Of a stretch of 12,523 nucleotides of DNA, positions 1 to 12,523 are shown piece by piece (position 1 is the stretch's first letter; every line of letters begins with the position of its first letter). Both the position numbers and the translations under genes were made by a program. The stretch is taken from IMG/VR virus record IMGVR_UViG_2541047958_000002, positions 1 to 12,523 of that record. One strand, written 5' to 3'. The stretch is from a virus. Taxonomy: Duplodnaviria > Heunggongvirae > Uroviricota > Caudoviricetes. The notes below the pieces were generated by a model, which was not told the DNA's origin, made no database searches, and saw nothing but the letters and a program-made list of their open reading frames with translations.

Positions 1-216
1 TTATTGGTTATCCGCTTTAGAAGCATTGACCTGATCTTCCCATGATGCGATCTCAGATTCCCGCCAGCGCTTAGGGTTGCCGGGAATCGTTGGTTTAGGG
101 AAGGGGCAGGTGAAGCTCGAAGGCATGCGCGCCGGTGTACTCCAAAAGTACAGCGTACTCCGGGAAATTTTGTATCGAGCCAGGATGTCACTGGTAAACA
201 AGATGCCGTCATTCAT
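1..216 (-). CDS. alpA: AlpA-family phage transcriptional regulator / excisionase-like DNA-binding protein (71 aa)
   Basis: Complete minus-strand ORF (stop at 1-3, ATG at 214-216). The product has an 'ISRSTLYFW' HTH-like segment and an 'FPKP...RWRESEI..WE' tail that match my recollection of AlpA/Phage_AlpA proteins. A GGAG lies about 9 nt upstream of the ATG on the minus strand. Family assignment is from memory, not a search. Confidence 0.7.
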   Translation of the reverse strand: MNDGILFTSDILARYKISRSTLYFWSTPARMPSSFTCPFPKPTIPGNPKRWRESEIASWEDQVNASKADNQ

Positions 217-233
217 TATTCTTTACTCCAGGC

Positions 234-260
234 AAAAAAATGCCCTCGCAATGGAGGGCA
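234..260 (-). terminator. Intrinsic terminator-like hairpin in the alpA 5' region (minus strand)
   Basis: Plus strand reads A7 (234-240) then TGCCCTC-gcaatg-GAGGGCA (241-260). On the minus strand this is a 7-bp GC-rich stem with a 6-nt loop followed directly by seven U. It sits 18-44 nt upstream of the alpA start codon. Confidence 0.5.
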
Positions 261-362
261 AATGGGGGATAACGTGGCAGTGCATTCGCACCCAATATCC
301 CATGCTTTGTCGATACCGATGTTTCTGGCGACGTTCGTGCTGTCAGCTGAAGATAGCGGGAT

Positions 363-899
363 GTGGCGGAATATGTCGGCGTTCAACATGCGCAGGCCGT
401 GAAGCTTTGTTATCGGATAGCAGACCTGTACGGCTTAACCTCACCAACTGGCAGCGAAACATCATTCACTTTCGACGCTGTTGAAGCTCGTGATTTCATT
501 GATGGCGGTTGGTCATGCCAGGAGTACGTGGAGCTTGAACGCTTTCAGGAAGCGATAACCAACCATACCGGTGACTCCAACAATATGGTTGAACCTGTAA
601 CGACGGCTTACAAATTGCCAGATGATTTTATTTGCATGCTTACTGGTAGAGCTAAATATCTTCGAGAAAAAGGAGAGATCAAATCACCTGAGCTTTTGGA
701 GCGAGCCGCTGCCGCGCTTCAGGGGGAAAGCGTTAATACCTCCTCCATTCCTAATGGATGGAAACTCGTTCCGATTGACCCAACAAAAGATATGTTGCGT
801 GCGGGGCAATCGGTGGTTGGGTTCTGGCTGAATACAGTGCATTGCTACTCGAAAATGCTCGCCGCTGCACCAGCAGCACCGCGGCAGGAGGTGAAGTGA
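363..899 (+). CDS. Hypothetical phage protein (up to 178 aa; start uncertain)
   Basis: Longest plus-strand ORF in this interval and co-directional with the downstream genes. The first start is GTG at 363; the in-frame ATG at 586 (MVEPVTT...) is an alternative. No family recognised. A terminator follows at 936-958. Confidence 0.45.
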   Translation: MAEYVGVQHAQAVKLCYRIADLYGLTSPTGSETSFTFDAVEARDFIDGGWSCQEYVELERFQEAITNHTGDSNNMVEPVTTAYKLPDDFICMLTGRAKYLREKGEIKSPELLERAAAALQGESVNTSSIPNGWKLVPIDPTKDMLRAGQSVVGFWLNTVHCYSKMLAAAPAAPRQEVK

Positions 900-935
900 C
901 GAACAAGATGACGAGAGTTACCATAGATATAAATC

Positions 936-958
936 AAGGCCCTTAGGGGCCTTTTATT
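936..958 (+). terminator. Rho-independent terminator downstream of the 363-899 ORF
   Basis: AAGGCCC-ttag-GGGCCTT stem-loop (936-953) running into TTTTATT (952-958). Confidence 0.6.
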
Positions 959-992
959 CTATGATAAACGGACTTTGTTTGAGAGTGACGCC

Positions 993-1319
993 ATGAAGCC
1001 CAAGAAGCTAAATGCTGAGCAGCAATACAAATTAGACCTTGAATTGGTCAAGAAGAAGCCTGCGAACCGGACCGAGGCAAAAGCCCATTTGGCCGCACAG
1101 TTACGGATCAGCAAGTACAAGACGCAGACCTCTTCCAAAATCCGCGTAGGCAGTTTTAAGGGGCGGAAGAAGGTACATTTCAGTAAGGCGGAACAAGCAG
1201 CCAGGGCAGCACTAAATAAAGCAAATGCCATTAGATTTTCCGAAGGGGAGGTCGAGTCCGTCGATACGGATAGAATCTCAGAAAGTAACAAACGCTGGCG
1301 CGGGAGAACTGCTGACTAA
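993..1319 (+). CDS. Hypothetical lysine-rich small protein (108 aa)
   Basis: ORF 975..1319 in the track begins at TTG; the ATG at 993 ([11 protein letters not shown]...) is the more plausible start. Basic, Lys/Ala-rich composition. Its stop overlaps the next start (TAATG at 1317-1321). Confidence 0.5.
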
Positions 1320-1573
1320 TGTCTGACTGGAATATTGCTGCAAAGCCGCAGGAAGAACGCGACAAGGTTAATGTTGACCTGGCAGCCTCCGGCGTGGCCT
1401 ACAAAGAGCGCCTGAATATGCCGGTTATCGCCGAGCAGGTAGCTCGTGAGCAACCAGAGCATCTACGAGAGTATTTCATGGATCGCGTGCGGCACTATCG
1501 CGAGCAGAGCGTTGCATTGCCTAAGGCATCTGATCCTCGCTACATTGAAATGACTGAGCAAAATGCAAAATAA
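1319..1573 (+). CDS. Hypothetical small protein (84 aa)
   Basis: ATG at 1319 overlaps the upstream stop (translational coupling). No overlapping ORF on the opposite strand is better. No family recognised. Confidence 0.5.
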
Positions 1574-1589
1574 ATTTCAGGAGATTCAA

Positions 1590-1850
1590 ATGGAAAATAG
1601 CATGAGCATCACAACGATTCTTGAAAGAGAAAGGGAGCTTGATGATCTTGTTAAGGTGTGCCTCGATGAGCTTGAGGTGATTGACATCCATGGACAGGTT
1701 TACTCAATTCCTCTTTCCCACCTAACGAACGCAGAGCAGGTGGTACATTGGGTCTGGAAGATTGCTGAGAGAGGTGATTTCGCCATGGATGTTGTTCGTA
1801 AATTTACTGAAGTTGCGTCCCATCATGTGGGGTTTGACGCTAAAAAATAA
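1590..1850 (+). CDS. Hypothetical small protein (86 aa)
   Basis: ORF 1563..1850 in the track; the internal ATG at 1590 is preceded by AGGAG (1578-1582) with about 7-nt spacing. No family recognised. Confidence 0.5.
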   Translation: MENSMSITTILERERELDDLVKVCLDELEVIDIHGQVYSIPLSHLTNAEQVVHWVWKIAERGDFAMDVVRKFTEVASHHVGFDAKK

Positions 1851-1920
1851 ATCGCCAAGGACCGATTTAATAGCTATACACATGTTTTACATTCCGCTCG
1901 CATCTTAACCAAATCTTTCT

Positions 1921-1929
1921 TGGTATAAT
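1921..1929 (+). promoter_or_regulatory. Candidate extended -10 promoter element (TGgTATAAT) upstream of the zinc-ribbon gene
   Basis: TGGTATAAT at 1921-1929 matches the extended -10 consensus TGnTATAAT. There is no convincing -35 at 16-18 bp, which is acceptable for extended -10 promoters. It lies about 40 nt upstream of the ATG at 1969. Confidence 0.4.
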
Positions 1930-1968
1930 GATTTTTTACAGGCGAATGACGTGTGAGGTCCGGGATTT

Positions 1969-2166
1969 ATGACTTGTGAAGTATGTAACAAACAACCCCT
2001 TGGACGAAGGGACCCGCCTCTTCCATGCATGGTCTTGCAAGGCGATAAATCCGTTAACTTCAGCCATCACGGACGCGAAGCAAACGAGCGTTATTACAAA
2101 TGCTCGGAATGCGGTCATGAGTGGATGAGAGAGACAGGAAATTGCGGCGAAGGCTGGATTCCTTAA
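1969..2166 (+). CDS. Small zinc-ribbon protein (65 aa), possibly an Ogr/Delta-like zinc-finger regulator
   Basis: ORF with GAGG about 10 nt upstream of the ATG. Cys pairs CEVC (res 3-6) and CSEC (res 45-48), with an 'ERYYKC' context before the second pair that resembles the 'ERYHQC' of P2 Ogr as I recall it. The spacing between pairs differs from Ogr, so the family call is tentative. Confidence 0.45.
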   Translation: MTCEVCNKQPLGRRDPPLPCMVLQGDKSVNFSHHGREANERYYKCSECGHEWMRETGNCGEGWIP

Positions 2167-2190
2167 CTATATATTGTCGCTATTCGCAAA

Positions 2191-2219
2191 TTGATTTTCT
2201 CAAATCATCCCGCCATAAT
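2191..2219 (+). promoter_or_regulatory. Candidate sigma70 promoter (-35 TTGATT, 17-bp spacer, -10 CATAAT)
   Basis: TTGATT at 2191-2196 and CATAAT at 2214-2219 with a 17-bp spacer. It would start a transcript running through the dyad elements at 2245-2343 into the ORF at 2370. Confidence 0.3.
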
Positions 2220-2244
2220 TAAGTCGCAGTCGGCCTGAACACCC

Positions 2245-2291
2245 GATTGTGACTTCTGCGCATTTAAGGGGACTTAAATGCGACCACAATC
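2245..2291. promoter_or_regulatory. 47-bp imperfect palindrome (nested inverted repeats) in the leader
   Basis: Outer arms GATTGTG (2245-2251) / CACAATC (2285-2291); inner 10-bp arms CGCATTTAAG (2259-2268) / CTTAAATGCG (2273-2282) around a 4-nt centre GGGA. No T-tract follows, so it is not a canonical terminator. It may be an operator or an RNA structure. Confidence 0.35.
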
Positions 2292-2313
2292 TGAAATCCT
2301 CACCTTGTCACAG

Positions 2314-2343
2314 ATGCAGAAATGCACCTGCGATTTTCTGCAT
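2314..2343. promoter_or_regulatory. Second dyad-symmetry element (9-bp arms, 12-bp spacer) just upstream of the RBS
   Basis: ATGCAGAAA (2314-2322) and its reverse complement TTTCTGCAT (2335-2343), separated by 12 nt. It ends 16 nt before the AGGAGG at 2360-2365. Confidence 0.35.
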
Positions 2344-2369
2344 TCTGCGGTTTCCGTTAAGGAGGCCGT

Positions 2370-2768
2370 ATGACTCTTCCAGTATCGGAGTATGGGAACG
2401 TCAATCACTGGTTGGCAAATGGTGGCGGCTGGTTCTTCAATCTCGACTATGACAAAGAAGTGCTGGCTAAGGCTCTGGTTCACAAAGCAGCTGAGCTGCC
2501 ACTCGTCATCGAGCTGGTTACCGCTGAGCGTAAAATCGTTATCTGCCACGCTGACTACCCGCATAACGAATATGCGTTCGATAAGCCCATCCCGAAAGAT
2601 ATGGTCATCTGGAATCGTGAGAGGGTTAAGTCCTGGCAGTTATACGTCAAGACAGTGGACATCGATGCTGACTCCGCGTCGGTCACTCTGTCCGTCACCA
2701 ACCCGCTGAACAACAACATCGGAAGGCTCTATGACCCAACGGAATATACCGGCCTGCAGTACCTCTGA
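2370..2768 (+). CDS. Lambda-type Ser/Thr protein phosphatase (PPase/PrpA family) homolog, N-terminally truncated and C-terminally divergent (132 aa); probable remnant
   Basis: Residues about 8-88 ('[22 protein letters not shown]...ELPLVIELV...VICHADYP...VIWNRER') match the middle of lambda phosphatase / E. coli PrpA as I recall them. The upstream GDxHG, GDxxDRG and GNHE metal-binding motifs are absent: the frame is closed by a TAA at 2358-2360 and there is no room upstream. The C-terminus lacks the GH motif. A strong AGGAGG (2360-2365) sits 4 nt before the ATG. Confidence 0.6.
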
Positions 2769-3147
2769 TTTTGCTCGGAAGGTGATCGGCGTGCCGTGGG
2801 CTAACCGGGCCTGCTCGTTCGATAGGGTCGACTGCTGGGGCTTGTGCGTGCTGTATTACCGGCACGTTCTCGGCATTGAACTGCACCAGACGCCGGACTA
2901 CGAAGCCGGTGAGGACTTCTTCACCTGCTATCAAAGTGATGTCGTTTTCTGGCACCCGGTGGATAAGCCGGTCGAGGGCGGGATATTCGTCGGGTACCGC
3001 GGCGCGCAACCGGCGCATGTTGGCCTGGTACTGAACCGGCAGGCGCTGCACTCGCGCGGCGAGAACGGAAGCGTACGCATGGACTCGTTGCTGGTCATTC
3101 AGCGGGCATTCACCAAAGTGGAGTTTTTCGAATATGGCGCTGGTTGA
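2731..3147 (+). CDS. NlpC/P60-family peptidase domain protein, phage tail protein K-like (138 aa; start uncertain)
   Basis: Contains 'DCWGL' (catalytic-Cys context of NlpC/P60, cf. DCSGL) and a later 'HVGLV' His motif. It overlaps the upstream ORF by 38 nt if the ATG at 2731 is used; GTG at 2791 preceded by GAAGGTGA is an alternative start. It is shorter than typical K proteins and has no JAB/MPN region. Confidence 0.55.
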
Positions 3148-5611
3148 GATATCGAATTTTCCAGGAACGCCTAAGCTGCGTTGCAGGGTGCCAAACGGCA
3201 CCCTTTTTTATGACTGGCTGGCGGCCAATGATGGTAACTTTCACCGCGATCTGCTGATCGTCCGCAACGGCGTAAAGTTGGGCGAAGATGATGAGCTGGC
3301 GTTTGAGCTATGCGAACTGGACACCGTCCAGATATTCGACCAGCCGAAGGGCATCATTGGCGACATTCTCAGCCCGATCTTCAAAGTTGTCGGCGCGGTA
3401 TTCTCTTTCCTTGCGCCAAAGCCGGCGATCGCCAATACAGGCGGCAACACGATTGACTCGCCAAACAATAGCCTGACCGGCCAGACGAATACGGCGCGCG
3501 TCTACAAAGCAAAACCGGACATCTACGGACAAATCCGTTCGTTCCCGGACCTGATTCAGGAGTCGCTTTTCGAATACGTGCGCCAGAGCGACACGGATGG
3601 CGGCCTGAAGTACGTTACTGAGTGGATGTGCATCGGGATCGGCAAATATGATTACGAGTCTGTGCGTTATTCAGAGTCCAGCCTAGGAAGTATGGCCGGT
3701 GCAGAGTTCCAGTTTTACCAGCCGGGTGAAGTGATCCCTACCATCAACGAAGGCTACGGGTTCGACGACGTGGATGGCCAGGAAGTGCCCGGGCAAAACG
3801 AATCGGATAATTTCCCGATCGAGACTGCTACGGCTACTACGGTTGTGAGCGGAACTTACTCCGGCGGGCAGATTGCGGTAAAAATTATCAAGCAGGCTGA
3901 GTTTGATTACTTCATGGGCCTGGTCCTGCCGCACGCCGTTACTTTTACGATTAACGTCACCTACAGCACGCCAACCGGCAACGTAACGCAGGATGTCGAT
4001 TTCTCCGGCACGCTGATATCGGCTGTCGAAACAAACGACGGCGCGGTGGTTAACCCGGTCCGGTGGTACACATTCACGATGAGGGATCTAATTGGCCCTC
4101 CTGACGTGCCGGCAACGGCGACTATTAACACGACGAAGTTCATCCTTAACGATAACGAAGCGCTAGTGGTAGGCCCGTTCTTCTCGCCGGTCGAATCTGC
4201 CCAGTTATGGCTGCACACTCAGGTGCAGCTGGGCGGCAAAAAGTCCGCTGACTGGAAGGTCACGATCTGGAAAATTGACGATTACTACAACCAGGTGCCG
4301 GGTACTCAGCAGACGTTCACGTATCATCAGGGGACGCCGCACAAATCATCGAGCGAAGTATTTTACCGTACCGATAAGCTGACGCCGACCGGCGGTTTCG
4401 GCAAGTACGCTATTAACTTCCAGCGCACAGATAACTCGAGTGATGCCTCTATCCTGAAGGTTGAGGAGATCCACTCGGTCAACGTCAGAACCAACGTCGT
4501 GCATCCAACCGATACGCTGGTGCGCGTGAAGGTAAGGGCGACGGAGAACGCCCTGGGCAGCCGTGACCGCAAGTACAACGCACTGGTGACGCGTCAGACC
4601 ATCAGTTACAACCTGACGACGCAATCGGTGGATTACACCCTGCGGGCCTCGCGCTCGTTCGCTGATGCAGTGGCGCATACCTGGCTGATTATGGGCGAGC
4701 AGCCGGTAAGTAGCATTGACCTGTACGGGCTGTACTCGATTGCCGAAAGTCTGCCGGATGAGCGCCTGGGTTACTTCGACTACACGTTTGACGACGAGAA
4801 CGATTCGTTGGGCGACAGGGTGCAGGCTATCTGCAATGCGGCCTCTGTCATTGCGTACTGGGACGATGGCGTGCTGACGTTTACTCGCGATCAGAAGGTT
4901 GAGTACCCGGCGGCCGTATTCAACCGGGCCAATATGAAGACGGACGAGTACAAAATGACGTACGAAGCCACTCTTCCTGGCGGCTATGACGGCGTGCAGG
5001 TGTCCTACGTTCATCCGACAACCAACAACAAGACGTACATCAACTACCGCGTGCTGAACGGCGCTATCGTCGAGCAGGAAGCGGAGAACCCGAACAAAAT
5101 CGATATAGTCGGCTTCCGTAACGAGTATCAGGCGCGGGAACGCGCGCTGCGCGAAACGAAGCGCCTTATCTACTCCCGGGTGAAGATGAACGCCAAAGTG
5201 TTTGAGGACGGGATCATGCAGGTCGGTAGCGTCGTGCAGATAGCGGATATCTACGACAGCAACCAGCAGCAGGGATACATCACAGGCCGCGCCGGGAATA
5301 GCTTTGATACAAGCGAGCCAATCGCGTTTACCGGCTCGATGTATGTCCTGGTGACCGACAGCCTGGGCAACCCGACTCTGCGCTATCCGGCGACGGCACG
5401 CGCCGACACGAAGTACGGATTCACCGCGGCAATACCCGACATTCAACTTAATATCTGGAACGGAGACACCGTGCAGCTCCCGTCGCGCTACCTCATAGCA
5501 ACGGTGGAGGAGCTGAACAGCCAACTATGGACGGTCAATAGCATCAAGCCGAACACAGATAACACGGTATCTCTGACCGTCGCGGAATACAGCGACGCCA
5601 TCTACCAATAA
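3134..5611 (+). CDS. Phage tail tip / host-specificity protein (825 aa) with a tail-assembly-protein-I-like N-terminal region and a J-like central region
   Basis: Long ORF whose ATG overlaps the upstream stop. The N-terminal about 150 aa ('...FLAPKPAIANTGGNTIDSP...YGQIR') resembles lambda gpI as recalled. Later segments ('DRVQAICNAASVIAYWDDGVLTFTRDQ', 'GFRNEYQARERALRETKRLIYSRVK...VGSVVQIADIYD') resemble conserved blocks of lambda host-specificity protein J. Codon composition matches the flanking genes. Confidence 0.75.
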   Translation: MALVEISNFPGTPKLRCRVPNGTLFYDWLAANDGNFHRDLLIVRNGVKLGEDDELAFELCELDTVQIFDQPKGIIGDILSPIFKVVGAVFSFLAPKPAIANTGGNTIDSPNNSLTGQTNTARVYKAKPDIYGQIRSFPDLIQESLFEYVRQSDTDGGLKYVTEWMCIGIGKYDYESVRYSESSLGSMAGAEFQFYQPGEVIPTINEGYGFDDVDGQEVPGQNESDNFPIETATATTVVSGTYSGGQIAVKIIKQAEFDYFMGLVLPHAVTFTINVTYSTPTGNVTQDVDFSGTLISAVETNDGAVVNPVRWYTFTMRDLIGPPDVPATATINTTKFILNDNEALVVGPFFSPVESAQLWLHTQVQLGGKKSADWKVTIWKIDDYYNQVPGTQQTFTYHQGTPHKSSSEVFYRTDKLTPTGGFGKYAINFQRTDNSSDASILKVEEIHSVNVRTNVVHPTDTLVRVKVRATENALGSRDRKYNALVTRQTISYNLTTQSVDYTLRASRSFADAVAHTWLIMGEQPVSSIDLYGLYSIAESLPDERLGYFDYTFDDENDSLGDRVQAICNAASVIAYWDDGVLTFTRDQKVEYPAAVFNRANMKTDEYKMTYEATLPGGYDGVQVSYVHPTTNNKTYINYRVLNGAIVEQEAENPNKIDIVGFRNEYQARERALRETKRLIYSRVKMNAKVFEDGIMQVGSVVQIADIYDSNQQQGYITGRAGNSFDTSEPIAFTGSMYVLVTDSLGNPTLRYPATARADTKYGFTAAIPDIQLNIWNGDTVQLPSRYLIATVEELNSQLWTVNSIKPNTDNTVSLTVAEYSDAIYQ

Positions 5612-5632
5612 GAACCGTCCCCGACCAACCAG

Positions 5633-5658
5633 ACCCGGCCACCGTGCCGGGTTTTTTT
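5633..5658 (+). terminator. Rho-independent terminator between the tail-tip gene and the tail-fiber gene
   Basis: ACCCGGC-caccgt-GCCGGGT stem (5633-5652) followed by seven T (5652-5658). The T-tract ends 11 nt before the ATG at 5670. Confidence 0.75.
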
Positions 5659-5669
5659 ATGGAATCAAT

Positions 5670-8102
5670 ATGGCTACGCAACCTACAAACTTGCCTGTTC
5701 CAAGCGAATCACCACGCGACCTGAAGTTCAACGCCGGGAAAATTGATGAATTTGTAACTTCCCTGGCTGAATGGTATGTGGACCGCTTCGGAATAAAGCA
5801 TTACACCATCGAAGGACTGAAGAATCTGGTACTGCAGCAGATTTATAATCTCGGCTGGAATCCGGTTGGAACATTCCAGGGCGGTGCAACTCTGACAGCG
5901 GCTGGTGACATCATCCAGGACACAAGCACGGGTGTATGGTATCGCTGGGATAACCTGGCAACACTGCCTAAAGTTGTTCCTGCTGGCTCAACTCCTGCAT
6001 CATCTGGTGGGATCGGAGAAGGTAAGTGGCTCGCCGTTGATGTGAGTGATGTGCTTAGAAAGGAGCTGGCTGAACCTGGTGGTGCTGGCATGATGGGTTA
6101 TGACGACTTTGAGTCTTATCAGGATGGTACTGTTGGCAGTGCCATTAAGGATCAGAACTTCAGAAAAAAAATAATCTACAAACTTCCATTTCAGTTCACT
6201 GGGTATTCTGATGCACTGGCGGCAATTGGAGCTGGAAGCATCATATACCCGCAGGGTGCTGACTATGATGATGATGGTCTACTCTTCATTAACTATGTGC
6301 CTAATGCTGGAGGGTCGCTTAGGGTAATAGTTGTTTATAACCAGGCAGGAGAGCAAGTAACGTGGTTTTATAGTCCAAACAGTAGTAATCAGTCTGTGGC
6401 TATATATGGCGGAAGCTCATCACGTAGATTGTATGACAGACGTCTTGGGGATGATTTTGTTTATTATTATGACATAACCACATTACCCGCAGCAGGTAGC
6501 ACGCTTTCAGGGCACACAATAACGACAATTCAGTCGGCTGGATCACATATGTGCATTGAGGGTAATTTACTCTTCTGCACATTAAACGCGACACCGATAG
6601 GAACATCGCAGTCGCAGACGGTTGTAAATTCGTACCGTGTTGATACTGGTGAGAAGCAGGGAACTATAAATGTCTCCCAGATGTTGACAGGGTTTGCAAC
6701 TCCAGAGCTTTCGCCAACCTACTATTACAGGGTATGGAAAATTCAAGGTTTGGCATACAAGAATGGAATCCTCCATATTGGGGTTGGTGGGAGCTATCGC
6801 CCTACATTAGATGATGCAAAATATCCTGTGCATGATTACGGCGTCCTCCGAGTGTCACTCTCTGGTGAGTTAATAGACCACTCTGTTGTGAAATCAGATA
6901 AGTTGATGACATATCTGGCATCAAACGGTTGCACCGTCTCAAGAACAGAGTCAGAGGGATGTTTCAAGCACCCTGACGGCACTATCCATTCAATTCTTAT
7001 TGGTGATATGGCTGAATCATCTCCTAGCACACCCAATGGCATTGTTATAATGAGGGAGTTTTCACGGGATGGATTTAACATGCTGGATGCCGCTTCCGGA
7101 TATTGTCCTCTCCCAACGTATGGATTTAATCGACTTATGCGATCTGAGCAGGGGGCATTGTGCGATCCCGTATTAAACACAGTATTTAGTAGCGTAACTC
7201 AGATTCTTGATTTAATGGCTTCATTAAACTTAACTGAGTTCTCATGGTTTTCAACCATAGCACCTTCACTAACCACAATACCCGGCCTTAATTACGTAAT
7301 AGGACAAATCTACCATGTTACCAATCTTAACAATGGAGGATTTGTTATTGAATCTTCTGGTACTGCGCTTGGGATGGAAGTGTATAGCGTAGTTGGAAGT
7401 CTTGGATCATGGACTGCTACAAGGCGTTCCATTTCAGGTTCAAAGATTAATATTAATAATGCAGGTAGCTTAGGACAAATTTCATTTACAGCATCTACAG
7501 GTAAAGAAGTTGGTATTGCCCAAATAAGCTATACAGGGACTTCTACACCTCTTGTTATCGGCTCTGGAGGAACTTTAAACCCTAATGCTATTTTCTTCTT
7601 CACAAATCCGACAGTGACAAGTGAAAGTGGGGGAACTCAATCTTTTCAGATTTACAATAATCAGGTACTACCTGGCGTCTCTAGCGCGCAGTCTAACGGG
7701 AGTGCGTCATTTAAATGGACTCAGTTCTACGCCGATTCTGGTTCCATTAACACATCTGACAGAAGGAAGAAGACAGATTTCGAGGATATAAGTGAAGCCG
7801 AAAAGCGTGTAGCTATCAAGATTAAGGGAATGATTTGTCGGTACAGAATGAAGGATGCGGTAGCTATTAAAGGCGATGGCGCAAGATATCATATAGGTGC
7901 AATTGTTCAGGATGTTATCTCTGCGTTCGAGGATGAAGGACTAGACCCCATGCTTTACGGTATGGTTTGTTATGATAAGTGGGATAAGAAGGAACCAATA
8001 TATGATGAAAATGGTGCTATGATATTCTCAGGTTGCGAAGCCGGTGATGGTTACTCTTTAAGATATGATGAGATGTTATGTTTCATTATCTCAGCCATTT
8101 GA
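5670..8102 (+). CDS. Tail fiber / tailspike protein (810 aa) with a C-terminal intramolecular chaperone (peptidase S74-type) self-cleaving domain
   Basis: The N-terminal about 150 aa carry a 'YRWDNLATLPKVVPAGSTPASSGGIGEGKW' block that I recall from endosialidase-type and related tail fibers. The C-terminal about 115 aa ('TSDRRKK...ARYHIGAIVQDVISAF...MVCYDKW') match the Ser-x4-Lys autoproteolytic chaperone domain. The central 500 aa are unassigned and AT-rich. Confidence 0.85.
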   Translation: MATQPTNLPVPSESPRDLKFNAGKIDEFVTSLAEWYVDRFGIKHYTIEGLKNLVLQQIYNLGWNPVGTFQGGATLTAAGDIIQDTSTGVWYRWDNLATLPKVVPAGSTPASSGGIGEGKWLAVDVSDVLRKELAEPGGAGMMGYDDFESYQDGTVGSAIKDQNFRKKIIYKLPFQFTGYSDALAAIGAGSIIYPQGADYDDDGLLFINYVPNAGGSLRVIVVYNQAGEQVTWFYSPNSSNQSVAIYGGSSSRRLYDRRLGDDFVYYYDITTLPAAGSTLSGHTITTIQSAGSHMCIEGNLLFCTLNATPIGTSQSQTVVNSYRVDTGEKQGTINVSQMLTGFATPELSPTYYYRVWKIQGLAYKNGILHIGVGGSYRPTLDDAKYPVHDYGVLRVSLSGELIDHSVVKSDKLMTYLASNGCTVSRTESEGCFKHPDGTIHSILIGDMAESSPSTPNGIVIMREFSRDGFNMLDAASGYCPLPTYGFNRLMRSEQGALCDPVLNTVFSSVTQILDLMASLNLTEFSWFSTIAPSLTTIPGLNYVIGQIYHVTNLNNGGFVIESSGTALGMEVYSVVGSLGSWTATRRSISGSKININNAGSLGQISFTASTGKEVGIAQISYTGTSTPLVIGSGGTLNPNAIFFFTNPTVTSESGGTQSFQIYNNQVLPGVSSAQSNGSASFKWTQFYADSGSINTSDRRKKTDFEDISEAEKRVAIKIKGMICRYRMKDAVAIKGDGARYHIGAIVQDVISAFEDEGLDPMLYGMVCYDKWDKKEPIYDENGAMIFSGCEAGDGYSLRYDEMLCFIISAI

Positions 8103-8302
8103 AAAATAACGATGACCTTCCAATGTTAAAACATTGATTTGTGCTGTTTTTTATTCATTGTTGCAAGGTCATTGTATATTATTTGAATGGGTTTAGACTC
8201 TAGTATTTCGAATTGTTTAATGGTTTTAACTAATCATGAGTATGGATGGCAACAGCAAAATCGTGTTAGGATAGGAAAAAATCGATTTCAGGACTCAAAT
8301 CA

Positions 8303-8336
8303 ATGAATGACTCACTTCAATGACTCACTTCAATGG
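8303..8336 (+). repeat. Tandem 13-bp direct repeat (ATGACTCACTTCA x2, with partial flanking copies)
   Basis: ATGA / ATGACTCACTTCA (8307-8319) / ATGACTCACTTCA (8320-8332) / ATGG. The unit length is not a multiple of 3, so successive ATGs fall in all three frames. Confidence 0.6.
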
Positions 8337-8498
8337 CTAACTCGAATTGTTGGCGTATATTGTCTGATAGATATGATAATGATTCTGTTGGGTATCAACG
8401 AGTGGTCGAAGTGGGTCATTTTCTCAAATTGCATCATGATTGCTATATGGGGATGGTCTGAGCGTAACAATTACAGGGGCTCAAGTAATGGAGAGTGA
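8307..8498 (+). CDS. Hypothetical small hydrophobic protein (63 aa, two predicted transmembrane segments)
   Basis: ORF in AT-rich DNA where chance ORFs are rarer. Hydrophobic stretches 'IVGVYCLIDMIMILLGI' and 'WVIFSNCIMIAIWGW'. Its ATG is the first copy of the 13-bp repeat. The RBS is weak. Speculative. Confidence 0.3.
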   Translation: MTHFNDSLQWLTRIVGVYCLIDMIMILLGINEWSKWVIFSNCIMIAIWGWSERNNYRGSSNGE

Positions 8499-8709
8499 AG
8501 AGTTTTTAGCTAGCCTCAAGCCTGGAGAAAAATGGTTGGCTGAAGGGGTGGTAAGAAGTAGAAAAGAAGGTGCCTGGAGTGTTATCCGTATATCTGATAA
8601 CGATAGCCAATGGGAGGCTACCTTCATGGGAAGAACATTGCCGGTGCTTTTCAGATCTAAAGAGTTGGCACTAATCGCTTTACTTGAACTATCTGTATGC
8701 CACGACTAA
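8488..8709 (+). CDS. Hypothetical small protein (73 aa)
   Basis: ORF 8440..8709 in the track begins at TTG; the internal ATG at 8488 is preceded by AGGGG (8475-8479). Its stop is followed by the bidirectional terminator. No family recognised. Confidence 0.4.
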   Translation: MESEEFLASLKPGEKWLAEGVVRSRKEGAWSVIRISDNDSQWEATFMGRTLPVLFRSKELALIALLELSVCHD

Positions 8710-8711
8710 AA

Positions 8712-8731
8712 GCGGCGTAAATTTACGCCGC
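8712..8731. terminator. Bidirectional intrinsic terminator between convergent genes
   Basis: Perfect 20-nt palindrome GCGGCGTAAATTTACGCCGC (8712-8731). It lies 3 nt after the plus-strand stop (8707-8709) and 8 nt after the minus-strand stop (8739-8741). A/T runs flank both sides; the U-tract is better on the minus strand. Confidence 0.55.
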
Positions 8732-8738
8732 ATAAATA

Positions 8739-9710
8739 TTAGACTACTCTTCGCAAAATCGGTATTGCAGTAAATATTTTGACAATGATAATTGAAGATG
8801 CAATGTAAAATACTGCCGCCAGAGGAATGCCCCATACATAATTTGTAATTGGCAGGTACTTCCATGAAGTGAAAATAATTAATGGGTGAACTAGGTAGAT
8901 GCCAAATGCATGCTTTGAAATTATTTTTATTATTGGGTTTGTTAAGTTAGATATGTTCTTAGCATAACCAATGCAAGCAAATGTCGTAGCTATCGCCGTA
9001 ATGGCTATAATCGGGCTGAAGTTCTTCAAGCTCATTCCTTGATATTCGCCATGAACTATCCCTTTGTTAACATAAATGGTAATAACGGAAAGTGTCAATG
9101 ATAGGATAGCAAATACAATTCTGTTCTTAATTATCAAGTCTTCCTTACGTGCAGCTATGTATCCTGCAAAAACATAGAGCATTAAATAACTTGCAAATGG
9201 AACGCTTATCTTTGGAACGGGTATTCCTATTGCATTAAGCTCCGGGTATAAGGATGTGCTGTAAAACAGAATTGCGAATATCAATAGGCTATAGCGTGTT
9301 CTTATCTCTCTACATCCCATAACTATCATTGGAACAAAAAGATAAATTGCAATGTAATCGTACATAAACCAAAGGTGTATGCTTGATGGTTTCATAGGGC
9401 TAAAACTATCTATGCCTGCATTTTTAAAAATTATCAAATATGCTGCGTAAATTATCCACCAAAACGCCAGTGGAATTACAAGGAGATTTATTCCTTTAAG
9501 GATGAAGCCTTCGAATTCAATTTTTTTGTTAGCATAGAGAAAGCCGGTTATGACAATGAATATACCAATGCATTGTTTCGAAATTGCACTATAAACATTG
9601 GCCCACTCCCAGTCAGGCGCGAGTTTGGCCCCAACAGGCCCGGCGCTGGCATGCAGTAGAACTACCAATATTATTGCTATGAAACGTGCAAAGACCACTC
9701 CATAATTCAT
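8739..9710 (-). CDS. Integral-membrane acyltransferase, acyltransferase-3 (AT3) family, probable polysaccharide O-acetyltransferase (323 aa)
   Basis: Minus-strand ORF with GGAG 7-8 nt upstream of the ATG. Strongly hydrophobic multi-pass protein with an N-terminal 'FARFIAIILVVLLHA' motif typical of AT3 proteins (cf. 'LRAIAVLxVVxFH'). AT-rich codon usage. Confidence 0.8.
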   Translation of the reverse strand: MNYGVVFARFIAIILVVLLHASAGPVGAKLAPDWEWANVYSAISKQCIGIFIVITGFLYANKKIEFEGFILKGINLLVIPLAFWWIIYAAYLIIFKNAGIDSFSPMKPSSIHLWFMYDYIAIYLFVPMIVMGCREIRTRYSLLIFAILFYSTSLYPELNAIGIPVPKISVPFASYLMLYVFAGYIAARKEDLIIKNRIVFAILSLTLSVITIYVNKGIVHGEYQGMSLKNFSPIIAITAIATTFACIGYAKNISNLTNPIIKIISKHAFGIYLVHPLIIFTSWKYLPITNYVWGIPLAAVFYIASSIIIVKIFTAIPILRRVV

Positions 9711-9753
9711 GAATGTCTCCAGTTGACGGGCTTACGCCCGTCTTAGTTGATTA

Positions 9754-11712
9754 TTATTTATTAAGCACACTTAAGATCTTATCTTTAAATCCGTTCACTG
9801 CCATCTGTGAGCCATCTTTTGATAAATGCCCCCCATCTGAATACATGATTTTGTCATTGAATATTGAACGGCAGGTTCCGTTAGAACAAAACACTTCATA
9901 CGGGTCCATGTAGTAAGTATTTCTCATTGACTGGGCAGCCTTCTTTAACATCTGATTTAGTTTGTACGAGTGAGCAGTTCTCTCTCTTACATTCAATTGT
10001 TCAGAACACGGACCTGTCGCAAATGATGGTCTAGTGATACAAGCCACCACACCATTTTTATCGCCAACCCGAGGAGGAGAACCGATAATAATCAAAGGCC
10101 TTCCTCCTGTGTCTTTTCTTAGTAACTTAAGTTGCTCGATAACATATGAATAATATTCATCTTTATCCTTAAAGATGATTTTTTCGCCAGTTTTACGGTT
10201 GGTAAGAACATCTTTTGATGTATCCCAAGAGTGCGAAATAATGAGAGGCTTACTGTTACCTTTAAGCAAGTTGTACAAGTTGCCATATTGCCCGGAGCAT
10301 AGATTGTCCGGCCCGGTCCCTGGCGTTCGGATTGAGTCTCTGCTTATTAAGCACCCATGAGCAAACAAGGTGTCAGCTTTAATATGGTTATCTTTAAAGA
10401 AATTATCCAGGCCATATGCATACTGATTGGCATAACTATCGCCAGCCACTATTACTGATGATTCCTTTACATTTAAATCACCTATTGTTTTTTTGTAGCC
10501 ATAATCGTGACCACCATATTGCTCAAAGTGATATTGGCCTGCATTCTCGGCCAAGGTTACGTATTTTTCATTAACACGCCATGTCATGCCGTTACTTTCA
10601 TAGGAGTATTTTCCTGCGAAAATCAAGATGGCAATGATTGAACCTACGCACGAATATACAGTAACAATTTTAAATTTATCGAGTTTAACGTTATGGAGTC
10701 GGAATGTTTTCTCAATACAGTAAAACGTGATCAGGGAAAAAATTGCTGTGATTATTATCATGGCAATTTTATCAATGATATCTGGCGTAGTTGCAATATA
10801 GTAGTTATAAAAAACTATCACGGGCCAATGTACAAGATACAAAGAGTAACTGATTAACCCTATGTATATGGCAACTTTGTTATCTGTTACAACTGAAACT
10901 TTAGCATTGCCAGCGTAAATGGCCATGCCCGCGCCAATACATGGGATTAATGCCATTACACCTGGGAATTGAGTTGTTTCATTGTACATAAACATGCTGA
11001 TAATAATAATTGCTATACCAGTCATGTATAGTACATTAAGAATCATACCTTTTGGCTGTTTTAATCTTTCAAGGAATACGACTATAGCCCCAACAGCAAA
11101 TTCGAATGCTCTGGATGTTGTTAGAAAATATGACTTATTAGAATCTGAAGGTAGTAGTGATTGTGAGTAAATAATGCTCACTACAAACATTATACTGATT
11201 ATAGCGATAATGCCATTTTTTGATTTTAATTTGTACGCCAACGTTAACAATAAAGGCCATACGAGATAGAATTGCTCTTCGACAGACAAAGACCATGTAT
11301 GTAGCAATGGTTTTGTGATTGATGAAGCGTCAAAGTAGTCACTACTTAACCAAAAGAAGAAGTTTGATAAAGAAATGACTGCAAATATGAGAGACTTTCC
11401 AAAATCAATCATTTGCTGCGGTGAAAATAAGAGCATGGCAGCAATTAAGCTCAGAGCACTTACAAAAAATAACGCTGGAAGAAGCCGCAATGCACGACGG
11501 GTATAAAATTGACCAAAAGTAAAAGCGTTTGATTCAAGTTGCCCAGTAATATTTCTGGTTATCAAATAGCCGCTGATAACAAAGAAAACGTCTACGCCAA
11601 CGAAACCACCAGGGAAGCTAAGCCCTATGTGGAAGAAAATCACGCCAAGGACGGCTATTGCACGTAATCCGTCAATGTCTCCACGATACTTTTTTGCGAC
11701 AACTAAGTTCAC
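9754..11712 (-). CDS. OafA-like O-acetyltransferase: N-terminal AT3 membrane domain fused to a C-terminal SGNH hydrolase-like domain (652 aa)
   Basis: Minus-strand ORF with a GTG start. The N-terminus 'DIDGLRAIAVLGVIFFHIG...VGVDVFFVISGYLIT...TWSLSVEEQFY' matches AT3 signature blocks as recalled for Salmonella OafA. The C-terminal soluble domain has SGNH-like blocks ('VAGDSYANQ', 'DGGHLS'). It sits 43 nt upstream of the 323-aa AT3 gene on the same strand, so the two are likely an operon. Confidence 0.85.
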   Translation of the reverse strand: MNLVVAKKYRGDIDGLRAIAVLGVIFFHIGLSFPGGFVGVDVFFVISGYLITRNITGQLESNAFTFGQFYTRRALRLLPALFFVSALSLIAAMLLFSPQQMIDFGKSLIFAVISLSNFFFWLSSDYFDASSITKPLLHTWSLSVEEQFYLVWPLLLTLAYKLKSKNGIIAIISIMFVVSIIYSQSLLPSDSNKSYFLTTSRAFEFAVGAIVVFLERLKQPKGMILNVLYMTGIAIIIISMFMYNETTQFPGVMALIPCIGAGMAIYAGNAKVSVVTDNKVAIYIGLISYSLYLVHWPVIVFYNYYIATTPDIIDKIAMIIITAIFSLITFYCIEKTFRLHNVKLDKFKIVTVYSCVGSIIAILIFAGKYSYESNGMTWRVNEKYVTLAENAGQYHFEQYGGHDYGYKKTIGDLNVKESSVIVAGDSYANQYAYGLDNFFKDNHIKADTLFAHGCLISRDSIRTPGTGPDNLCSGQYGNLYNLLKGNSKPLIISHSWDTSKDVLTNRKTGEKIIFKDKDEYYSYVIEQLKLLRKDTGGRPLIIIGSPPRVGDKNGVVACITRPSFATGPCSEQLNVRERTAHSYKLNQMLKKAAQSMRNTYYMDPYEVFCSNGTCRSIFNDKIMYSDGGHLSKDGSQMAVNGFKDKILSVLNK

Positions 11713-11825
11713 GAGAGAAGCCTACTAAAGTTAAAACGCGCATTTTAGTAGCTATCAGGACATGAAAAAAGAGAAAACTAGTAAATTATCAATAAACTAT
11801 ATCTACGTTCCTGAGCGAATGTGTT

Positions 11826-11834
11826 GGTGATCAC
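11826..11834. promoter_or_regulatory. GGTGATCAC palindromic motif, copy 1 (contains a Dam GATC site)
   Basis: Exact 9-mer containing the 8-bp perfect palindrome GTGATCAC. It sits in the divergent control region between the acyltransferase operon and the LexA-box promoter. Confidence 0.3.
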
Positions 11835-11882
11835 AAAACATGAGCAACTAATACAATTGTTTGCAATCCTTCAGACACATAA

Positions 11883-11891
11883 GGTGATCAC
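11883..11891. promoter_or_regulatory. GGTGATCAC palindromic motif, copy 2 (contains a Dam GATC site)
   Basis: Identical 9-mer 57 bp from copy 1, with similar A-rich 3' flanks (aaaaca / ggaaaaa). Confidence 0.3.
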
Positions 11892-11929
11892 GGAAAAATA
11901 GTATTGCCATAATTTAGAGGATAGATGTG

Positions 11930-11945
11930 CTGTATTTATATACAG
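11930..11945. promoter_or_regulatory. LexA (SOS) box, CTGT-N8-ACAG
   Basis: CTGTATTTATATACAG matches the E. coli LexA consensus CTGTATATATATACAG at 15 of 16 positions. It overlaps a candidate -10 (TATATA 11937-11942); TTTAGA at 11913-11918 is a possible -35. A T7 run follows. Confidence 0.6.
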
Positions 11946-11979
11946 TTTTTTTGGGGCTATATGCCGCATCGTTCAAATA

Positions 11980-12201
11980 TTGAGATCGCCTTCATGGGCC
12001 TCGATTGTGCATGAAAGGTCAGGCCGCAGGATTGTGAAAACTGCTGATTTTGTTCAGGAACTTCTAAAGGTCAGCTGGGACTTCAGCATGGAAGAGGCGA
12101 ACCTTTGGATAGCAAGGTACACAACCTGCTTCAAAGACATCACTCCTGATCACGGGGAGAACAAAACCTGGTTCATGTACAACCCGAATGGAGGGCTTTG
12201 A
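11980..12201 (+). CDS. Hypothetical small protein (73 aa; start uncertain, TTG in the track)
   Basis: ORF lying between the LexA box and the UmuD'-like ORF. Its stop (12199-12201) is 1 nt from the next ATG. No canonical ATG start with an RBS was found, so the call is weak. Confidence 0.3.
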   Translation: MRSPSWASIVHERSGRRIVKTADFVQELLKVSWDFSMEEANLWIARYTTCFKDITPDHGENKTWFMYNPNGGL

Positions 12202-12202
12202 T

Positions 12203-12523
12203 ATGGGGTTCCCAAGTCCAGCAAGGGATTACATCGAAAGTAAGCTTAATGTGAATGTTATATGCGGAGTCACCACTAACAGCCTAGTGATTGAGACATC
12301 GCAAGGATTTGCTGTGATAGAAAAGGGCATGAAGCCATCGCCAGACAGTACCTACCTGATTTCGTATTCAGGAGGTTGTCACTTTGCCAAACGTAGAGGC
12401 GATGCGCTGATAACGATAGATGGTGAAGTACTTGAAGGAGAGGTTCTGGATGAGGTGGATGTGAAGGGAATTCTGACCTACCTGATTAACCGGGCGGTGG
12501 ATGATGATAACCCGGTGATTTAA
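12203..12523 (+). CDS. UmuD'-like protein (S24 LexA/UmuD superfamily), beginning at the GFPSPA cleavage-site motif (106 aa; track ORF starts at 12188)
   Basis: The ATG at 12203 is preceded by GGAGGG (12190-12195). The product starts 'MGFPSPARDYIE', matching the 'C/GFPSPAxDY' auto-cleavage junction of UmuD/MucA. Downstream blocks 'STYLISYSGGCH' and 'RRGDALITIDGEV' align loosely with 'ATYFVKASGDSM' and 'HGDIVIAAVDGEF' of UmuD. The protein is shorter than UmuD. The stop is at the window end. Confidence 0.5.
   Translation: MGFPSPARDYIESKLNVNVICGVTTNSLVIETSQGFAVIEKGMKPSPDSTYLISYSGGCHFAKRRGDALITIDGEVLEGEVLDEVDVKGILTYLINRAVDDDNPVI

Follow-up and report, generated by a model that had tools for sequence, protein, structure and literature searches.

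What is the body of the tail fibre encoded at positions 5670-8102 of the 12,523-nucleotide stretch of viral DNA analysed here (the window; IMG/VR record IMGVR_UViG_2541047958_000002, Caudoviricetes), and what does it recognise on its host? The initial annotation, made from the letters alone, described a tail fibre with a self-cleaving C-terminal chaperone and a central region that was a candidate beta-helix depolymerase or receptor-binding domain. Judging from its sequence, the gene product is an intact modular phage tail fibre or receptor-binding protein, and its central region is modelled as a five-bladed beta-propeller. The explanation that we prefer, and regard as probably though by no means certainly correct, is that the protein is a homotrimeric modular receptor-binding fibre of a CobraSix/Sf11-like temperate siphophage, with a propeller platform and a self-cleaving chaperone, which now resides in a prophage remnant of Escherichia coli.

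The gene is a single long open reading frame (ORF) with an ATG start and 810 codons on the forward strand. The computed mass is 87.7 kDa for the precursor and 74.6 kDa for the predicted mature part, and the identical protein is present on 7 contigs. The ratio of nonsynonymous to synonymous substitution rates (dN/dS) is 0.14 against the homologue of E. coli E47 (684 codons), which indicates purifying selection on the shared part. We used a full-length monomer model (mean predicted local distance difference test score, pLDDT, 81.9) to place the borders of the modules, which are laid out as follows.

5670-8102, forward strand: whole tail-fibre ORF, 810 residues (ORF call, identical copies on 7 contigs, dN/dS).
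5670-5849, forward strand: N-terminal virion-attachment helices, residues 1-60 (homology to the N terminus of Sf11 tailspike gp13, 9occ_G).
5850-6044, forward strand: small Tail_spike_N beta domain of the TSP1/gp66 type, residues 61-125 (Pfam PF18668, model).
6045-6161, forward strand: flexible hinge and recombination breakpoint, residues 126-164 (low pLDDT, similarity borders, GC step).
6162-7079, forward strand: five-bladed beta-propeller ('platform'), presumed to bind glycan, residues 165-470 (model).
7080-7559, forward strand: linker helices and 'tower'-like beta-sandwich, residues 471-630 (models).
7560-7754, forward strand: beta-rich stalk ahead of the predicted cleavage site, residues 631-695 (alignment to known stalks).
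7755-8099, forward strand: intramolecular chaperone Peptidase_S74, residues 696-810, 13.1 kDa (Pfam, PDB sequence matches).

The central region was modelled separately with AlphaFold2 as residues 150-640, also as a monomer, from a 78-sequence alignment. The resulting model (mean pLDDT 91.5, predicted template modelling score 0.87) contains five four-stranded blades at about residues 192-236, 244-288, 290-334, 358-404 and 428-463, with the strand 165-172 closing the propeller ring. The propeller is followed by a short helix at ~483-487, a helix at residues 509-518 found in both models, and a beta-sandwich comprising residues 523-630; in the full-length model, propeller and sandwich are of high confidence over residues 165-590. 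Foldseek ranked at the top the baseplate receptor-binding protein of phage 80alpha (6v8i), those of phi11 and NF5, and the tail fibre of P68 (6iab), with E-values from 5e-13 to 5e-10. The best matches in a library of viral models were a Staphylococcus myophage fibre (template modelling score 0.77), the viral protein I6P8H5, the neck appendage of Bacillus phage GA-1 and a fibre of an E. coli podophage, and no beta-helix occurred among the top structural matches listed. According to the model, the centre is a phi11/P68-type five-bladed propeller platform followed by a beta-sandwich, and not a beta-helix. The beta-helix depolymerase put forward in the initial annotation, together with an AlphaFold model of the region as its check, has therefore to be abandoned, because the confident model shows a propeller instead and the closest structures are non-enzymatic receptor binders of Staphylococcus phages.

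In the phi11 receptor-binding protein, the five-bladed propeller 'platform', whose central cavity was proposed to hold the N-acetylglucosamine of wall teichoic acid, is followed by a 'tower' (PMC4901313), and the P68 tail fibre has the same arrangement of platform and tower (PMC6795507). The modelled fibre shares with phi11 Gp45 (5EFV) and the 80alpha (6V8I) and P68 (6IAB) proteins the five-bladed platform, the four-stranded blades and the closure of the ring by an N-terminal strand. It differs from them in several respects. The host of the fibre is Gram-negative, so its receptor cannot be wall teichoic acid. Its anchor is of the Sf11-gp13/TSP_N type, whereas the staphylococcal proteins have a coiled-coil stem or BppU_N, and it is modelled with one beta-sandwich and a stalk where the staphylococcal receptor binders have two tower subdomains. 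Finally, it carries a C-terminal chaperone predicted to cleave itself off, and none is described for the staphylococcal proteins in PMC4901313 and PMC6795507. Membership of the same sequence family as phi11 Gp45 was considered and rejected, since hhalign gave the 78-sequence profile a probability of 5%. Kinship with Gp45 is at the level of the fold only, whereas that with Twortvirinae and coliphage proteins is true sequence homology. We found no characterised five-bladed-propeller fibre of a Gram-negative phage in the literature, only surveys, in which 'n-bladed beta-propeller' domains make up 18% of the predicted Klebsiella prophage depolymerases and their role in the phage is called unclear.

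At the sequence level, residues 150-640 gave no Pfam match even at E ≤ 10 and no match to PDB sequences, and NCBIfam held nothing for the fibre. To this extent the centre is indeed without a recognisable match, as had been noted initially. The same cannot be said of PHROGs, where phrog_22693 matches residues 165-471 (E 1.4e-14), nor of a tblastn search of phages, which returned 39 records at 22-27% identity from Kayfunavirus and other coliphages and from Salmonella, Erwinia, Weissella and Staphylococcus/Mammaliicoccus Twortvirinae phages. When 1.84 billion representatives were searched exhaustively with HMMER, 191 cluster representatives were detected at E ≤ 1e-3. The family was visible only by such an exhaustive search, as a word-indexed protein search gave only 11 close relatives. 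Its domain of ~430 residues reaches about residue 590 of the fibre and lies nearly always inside proteins of several hundred to ~1400 residues. Because its partners vary across 60 family members (Peptidase_S74 in 25, Tail_spike_N in 9, BppU_N in 3 and an extra pectate-lyase-like domain in 3), the propeller is a cassette that has been combined with many anchors, often together with a chaperone.

The proteins of vB_EcoP-U8 (QOI58473), ZCSS1 (QQV88498) and phiSA_BS1 (AVP40439) are homologous to the central domain over 300-510 residues with 22-27% identity, and homologues of this type keep the YPQG, K-x-QG, GG-x-Y and E-x-E motifs. The U8 protein also carries Tail_spike_N and S74, as the fibre does; the anchors of these homologues differ, being a T7 fibre N terminus or lying in a myophage baseplate context. 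Two enzyme labels attached to such relatives were followed up and rejected. The label 'glycerophosphoryl diester phosphodiesterase' (GDPD), given to the PHROG and to the phiSA_BS1 and ZCSS1 proteins, is not accompanied by any GDPD domain in Pfam. For the label 'endo-N-acetylneuraminidase' on coliphage homologues, the chaperone is the sole source: no endosialidase catalytic domain is matched, and the similarity of the U8 homologue to endoNF is confined to the chaperone. Likewise, the endosialidase End_tail_spike domain PF12219 found no match in the fibre, whose modelled propeller has five blades and not six. The enzyme names of the U8 (L002 2254-5109) and phiSA_BS1 (L018 1187-4093) proteins, unsupported by catalytic domains in Pfam or PDB, look like propagated misnomers.

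By its sequence, the C-terminal domain genuinely belongs to the S74 family of intramolecular chaperones, and its cleavage is predicted. Pfam PF13884 (Peptidase_S74, 'chaperone of endosialidase') matches residues 696-758/810 from profile position 1, scoring 40.3 bits where the curated cut-off is 22. Searches of PDB sequences matched the C terminus to the released auto-chaperone fragment of phi29 gp12 (3gud_A, E 4e-22), the L-shaped fibre pb1 of T5 (4uw8, E 2e-17), the endoNF chaperone (3gw6, E 7e-6) and further to 6eu4 and 7y5s. Residue 1 of 3gud_A aligns with Ser696 (SDERHK vs SDRRKK). Ser696 (codon TCT at 7755-7757) and Lys701 (codon AAG at 7770-7772) lie in the local sequence INT-S-DRRK-K-TD, which has the Ser-x4-Lys spacing, and a catalytic Ser/Lys dyad at the start of the chaperone has reportedly been described in published work on endoNF and T5 pb1. 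In the crystallised 4uw8 chain, the position of Ser696 is occupied by Ala (stretch INTADARLK), which we take to be an engineered Ser-to-Ala substitution. Ser696, Asp697 and Lys701 are invariant in an alignment of 10 homologues. Residues 696-810 make up 115 residues with a computed mass of 13.1 kDa, and the chaperone has a pLDDT of 86-95, its confidently modelled part in the monomer being residues 700-810. Here the initial annotation anticipated the outcome well: the ~115-residue C terminus with Ser-x4-Lys is read in the sequence as S696-DRRK-K701, the start of the S74 profile and residue 1 of the phi29 fragment both fall on the serine it had predicted as the cleavage site, and the profile search it had suggested for the chaperone domain returned PF13884, alongside the matches to 3gud, 4uw8 and 3gw6.

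The preceding residues 631-695 are beta-rich and align with the pre-chaperone stalks of 7y5s, 6eu4, 4uw8 and 9vvr, with a pLDDT of 42-68 in the monomer, and the whole beta stalk stretch of residues 590-695 is poorly modelled in the full-length monomer. Such low confidence in the model would be as expected for a part that folds only as a trimer. The endosialidase of K1F (3GW6), phi29 gp12 (3GUD) and T5 pb1 (4UW8) likewise bear S74 at the extreme C terminus after a beta stalk, with a Ser-x4-Lys pair that aligns residue for residue and a released size of ~13 kDa. They differ in their cargo, which is a six-bladed sialidase propeller, a beta-helix appendage or a fibre tip in these proteins and a five-bladed propeller here.

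At the other end of the fibre, residues 1-152 match the Sf11 tailspike gp13 (9occ_G, E 8.9e-33 in the PDB sequence search). Helices are modelled at residues 15-29 and 47-60 with low pLDDT in the monomer, and PF18668 (Tail_spike_N) matches residues 67-123 (E 8e-14), residues 61-125 having a pLDDT of 92-95. The hinge is disordered, with a pLDDT below 50 over residues 131-159. In the Sf11 tail, gp13 is helical over residues 4-59 and there joins the adaptor helix of the distal tail protein in a bundle; six gp13 trimers decorate the tail tip, and there is a hinge near residue 162 (PMC12724387). Neither a BppU_N-type nor a coiled-coil anchor of the staphylococcal kind is present in the fibre, whose N terminus is of the Sf11-gp13 type with Tail_spike_N. 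Immediately upstream lies the gene of the tail-tip hub.

3134-5611, forward strand: tail-tip hub protein, 825 residues, homologue of Sf11 gp14 (BHUB2; 9occ_E, E 1.2e-254; phrog_469, E 2.5e-253).

Because this upstream gene is a gp14 homologue, the fibre gene occupies the position of the tailspike gene in Sf11 and CobraSix. The order of NlpC/P60 protein, hub and fibre is that of gp23-gp24-gp25 in Enterobacter phage CobraSix. The fibre thus has in common with Sf11 gp13 (9OCC) and CobraSix gp25 the adaptor of ~150 residues, the position right after a gp14-type hub gene and the hinge at ~160. It parts from Sf11 gp13 in the body, which in gp13 is a P22/Sf6-like beta-helix enzyme and in the fibre a cassette of lower GC content made up of propeller, sandwich, stalk and chaperone. 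Between hub and fibre there is a strong terminator-like hairpin at 5631-5654 on the forward strand, with a stem of 9 bp including 6 GC pairs and a T-run, 16 nucleotides before the start codon. The fibre cassette may thereby be expressed apart from the tail operon; a scan from 5500 to the start of the fibre found no promoter-like site.

The border between adaptor and body is also visible in the nucleotide sequence. Nucleotide similarity to CobraSix stops at 5819 and that to ENT47670 at 5890, and three E. coli prophage fibres become similar from 6117-6126 onward, at about residue 150 (nucleotides 448-457 of the query). The GC content falls stepwise from 0.554 in the upstream hub gene through 0.504 (residues 1-150), 0.441 (151-470) and ~0.41 (471-810) in the fibre to 0.37-0.38 in the downstream acyltransferase genes, in agreement with the AT-rich block in which the initial annotation had placed the centre. 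As read from the sequence, the recombination joint coincides with the hinge and a GC step at about residue 150. Identities to ten homologues vary independently from domain to domain: the E. coli fibre P0002 has 92% identity in the propeller and 55% in the chaperone, P0008 75% and 97%, and P0004 78% in the propeller and 87% in the sandwich. The sandwich part recombines apart from the propeller. Among the fibres P0001-P0011, two divergent chaperone alleles (~97% and ~54% identity) are shuffled among closely related propellers, so the chaperone is exchangeable between cargos.

Two acyltransferase genes follow the fibre on the opposite strand and bear on the question of its receptor.

8739-9710, reverse strand: AT3-only acyltransferase, 323 residues (PF01757, E 5.5e-35).
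9754-11712, reverse strand: AT3-SGNH acyltransferase, 652 residues, O-antigen acetylase type (PF01757 and PF19040; phrog_6705 'O-antigen acetylase', E 2.4e-159).

An AT3 gene lies directly downstream of the fibre, on the opposite strand, in all five E. coli prophage contexts retrieved, namely the element in the window, E47, P0002, P0004 and P0008. Loci L005, L007 and L011 are among those with this arrangement. The E47 enzyme is 59% identical to the 323-residue enzyme of the window, and beyond the AT3 gene of the P0002 locus (L005) come genes for GtrA, a family-2 glycosyltransferase and Glucos_trans_II. O-antigen acetylases or gtr clusters encoded by temperate phages of Salmonella and Shigella are known to change the receptor of the phage's own tailspike and thereby to exclude superinfection. 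Because the pairing with AT3 or gtr genes recurs and such receptor-altering acetylases are known, we infer by analogy that O-antigen may be the receptor of the propeller fibre. The earlier suggestion that the target could be the very polysaccharide modified by the adjacent acyltransferases thereby gains circumstantial support from the five of five contexts, one of them with gtr genes.

Other features were observed around the acyltransferases. A conserved 73-residue ORF (8488-8709, forward strand), also hypothetical in E. coli PK5, lies between fibre and acyltransferase, and a terminator-like hairpin (8712-8731, reverse strand) follows the acyltransferase gene. In PK5 (L004 12133-17366 against window 8356-12510), the acyltransferase pair and UmuD-like genes are 97.5% identical and occur without the fibre; the block adjoins tRNA-Asn and an integrase fragment, and IS5 splits the AT3-only gene. 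In CUPF12, IS1 interrupts the acyltransferase region. In view of the arrangements in PK5 and CUPF12, the acyltransferase block moves and decays separately from the fibre. In E47 (L001 5844-7064), the transposase of ISKox3 (ISL3 family) lies just upstream of the homologous 894-residue fibre. This fibre is part of a prophage of a different type, whose tail genes differ and in which the acyltransferase is immediately followed by a holin/GH19 lysis cassette.

Taken together, we propose the following course of events. The Sf11-gp13-type adaptor and Tail_spike_N would dock the fibre on the ring of distal tail protein, with six trimers as in Sf11. The chaperone would nucleate trimerisation of the stalk and then cut the Thr695-Ser696 bond, freeing the 13.1-kDa fragment and leaving the 74.6-kDa mature fibre. 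The propeller would bind a surface glycan, possibly O-antigen, in or around its central cavity, not necessarily degrading it. The downstream acyltransferases would modify the O-antigen, so that lysogens exclude phages with this fibre, and the fibre gene may persist beside these host-beneficial acyltransferases and as recombination stock.

Several observations weigh against this proposal. Sequence homology to Gp45 is undetectable, so that the functional analogy is drawn from the fold, and the sugar site of phi11 was itself modelled and not observed (PMC4901313). Both of our models are monomeric, and the stalk region is of low confidence in them. Acyltransferase neighbours are absent in two other phage contigs carrying the fibre, and their adjacency elsewhere may just reflect the usual spot for moron insertion after the last tail gene. 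Finally, a polar cluster in the propeller (Q195, D200, K357, Q359, E427 and E429) is near-invariant across phages of Gram-positive and Gram-negative hosts. Such conservation is unlike that of a specificity site and fits either a structural core of ions or hydrogen bonds or a catalytic centre.

This cluster is the point at which binding has to be weighed against catalysis. Across the propeller family Q195, Q359 and E427 are conserved at 99-100% and P194, D200, K357 and E429 at ≥92%; high conservation extends to R425, E463 and several glycines. Strand assignment alone places the polar conserved residues around the central channel, on the innermost strands of blades 1, 4 and 5. Residue 241 (6390-6392) is Glu in 83% of the wider family and Gln here and in nine close homologues aligned; Gln241 may mark a lost catalytic or ion-binding residue, or mean nothing. 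On the modelled fold, we favour non-catalytic binding clearly over catalysis, because binders are the nearest structures, there is no match to an enzyme family, and Gln241 replaces the Glu of the family. The alternative that the propeller is an enzyme, either a glycan depolymerase or an O-antigen esterase/deacetylase, which would make the fibre a true 'tailspike', seems to us unlikely, though far from negligible. Its active centre would be formed by E427-x-E429, K357-x-Q359, Q195 and D200 around the cavity. However, the best structural matches are by a wide margin non-enzymatic receptor binders, no CAZy-type or other Pfam domain matches at E ≤ 10, and the 'GDPD' and 'endo-N-acetylneuraminidase' names of the relatives lack domain support. 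In addition, the family's Glu is replaced by Gln241 in all close E. coli homologues as well, and polar residues conserved and buried as a cluster in the channel of a propeller may just as well hold a structural ion. The wider possibility, that the polar cluster is a catalytic centre and the family of ~190 clusters, which has no Pfam model and occurs in phages of Gram-negative and Gram-positive hosts alike, represents unrecognised phage enzymes processing surface glycans, is more doubtful still. If it were true, the fibre might be, for example, an O-antigen de-O-acylase or a depolymerase whose substrate is protected by the products of the adjoining acyltransferases.

The preferred reading, a receptor-binding fibre, leaves the question of whose virion it serves. 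The element of ~13.7 kb was read from L015, the longest of the 7 contigs with the exact protein, where it extends from about 3170 to 17000; positions 1-12523 of the window correspond to L015 4332-16854 and comprise nearly the whole element. It is inserted between a side with kch, yciI and a 4HBT thioesterase gene and a side with yciB, yciC, ompW and trpA, and E. coli chromosomes match the flank at 99.9% identity. Its genes are arranged in the order integrase, a few small genes, a chimeric ORF, NlpC/P60 protein, hub, fibre, the 73-residue ORF, both acyltransferases and a fragment resembling UmuD. As read from L015, the element lacks genes for capsid, terminase, tape measure, distal tail, tube and lysis, and it does not encode a distal tail protein with an Sf11-type adaptor helix that could be the partner of the fibre. 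At a junction near 2626, lambdoid nin-region DNA (NinI-NinB-NinE of HK225/phi80, 89-91% identity) extends leftward, and to the right similarity to CobraSix starts inside the homologue of the minor tail gene gp22. The junction (window ~2212-2768) is probably a recombination or deletion joint and the spanning ORF 2370-2768 probably chimeric. Among the small genes, an 84-residue homologue of the DNA polymerase III theta subunit is encoded at 1319-1573 on the forward strand (PF06440, E 6e-35), as in phage HK639. The element is a dead prophage remnant, and since the head, tape-measure, distal-tail and tube genes are absent, the fibre encoded here is most likely no longer mounted on a virion made by its own element.

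One could suppose, though we consider it improbable, that the intact fibre is kept for the use of the host or of other phages. Recombination at the conserved N-terminal joint could pass it on as a cassette to CobraSix/Sf11-like phages entering the cell, or it could be provided in trans. All 7 contigs carry the same full-length gene, its sequence shows purifying selection relative to homologues, the family is mosaic with breakpoints at domain borders, and the adjoining hub gene is intact too, all of which would suit such a role. Yet intactness may only mean that the deletion is recent, and the dN/dS against the homologue reflects past selection in functional phages and not in the remnant. Moreover, the gene is preceded by the terminator-like hairpin, and no promoter-like site lies in the stretch scanned before it. 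The P22/Sf6/K5 type of right-handed beta-helix depolymerase can be dismissed: the two proteins with the same type of N-terminal adaptor, Sf11 gp13 and CobraSix gp25, have been annotated as tailspikes or shown to be such, and 3 of 60 family members carry an additional pectate-lyase-like domain, but no beta-helix or pectate-lyase body was found in Pfam at E ≤ 10 and the confident model is a propeller with a sandwich.

In its modularity the fibre is ordinary; it combines known kinds of parts, would not surprise a specialist, and does not overturn current understanding. It does correct the expectation that the unassigned body of a coliphage tail fibre is a beta-helix depolymerase, and it flags the misleading names 'endo-N-acetylneuraminidase' and 'GDPD' on members of the propeller family. 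The clean module borders are useful for fibre engineering. The propeller platform of the phi11/P68 type, which has been studied in Staphylococcus phages only, is represented by a sequence family of ~190 clusters that also serves phages of E. coli, Salmonella and Erwinia, with a chaperone predicted to be self-cleaving in 25 of 60 members. The pairing of the fibre with acyltransferases provides a testable hypothesis on its receptor and may offer a natural system for the masking of receptors by lysogens.

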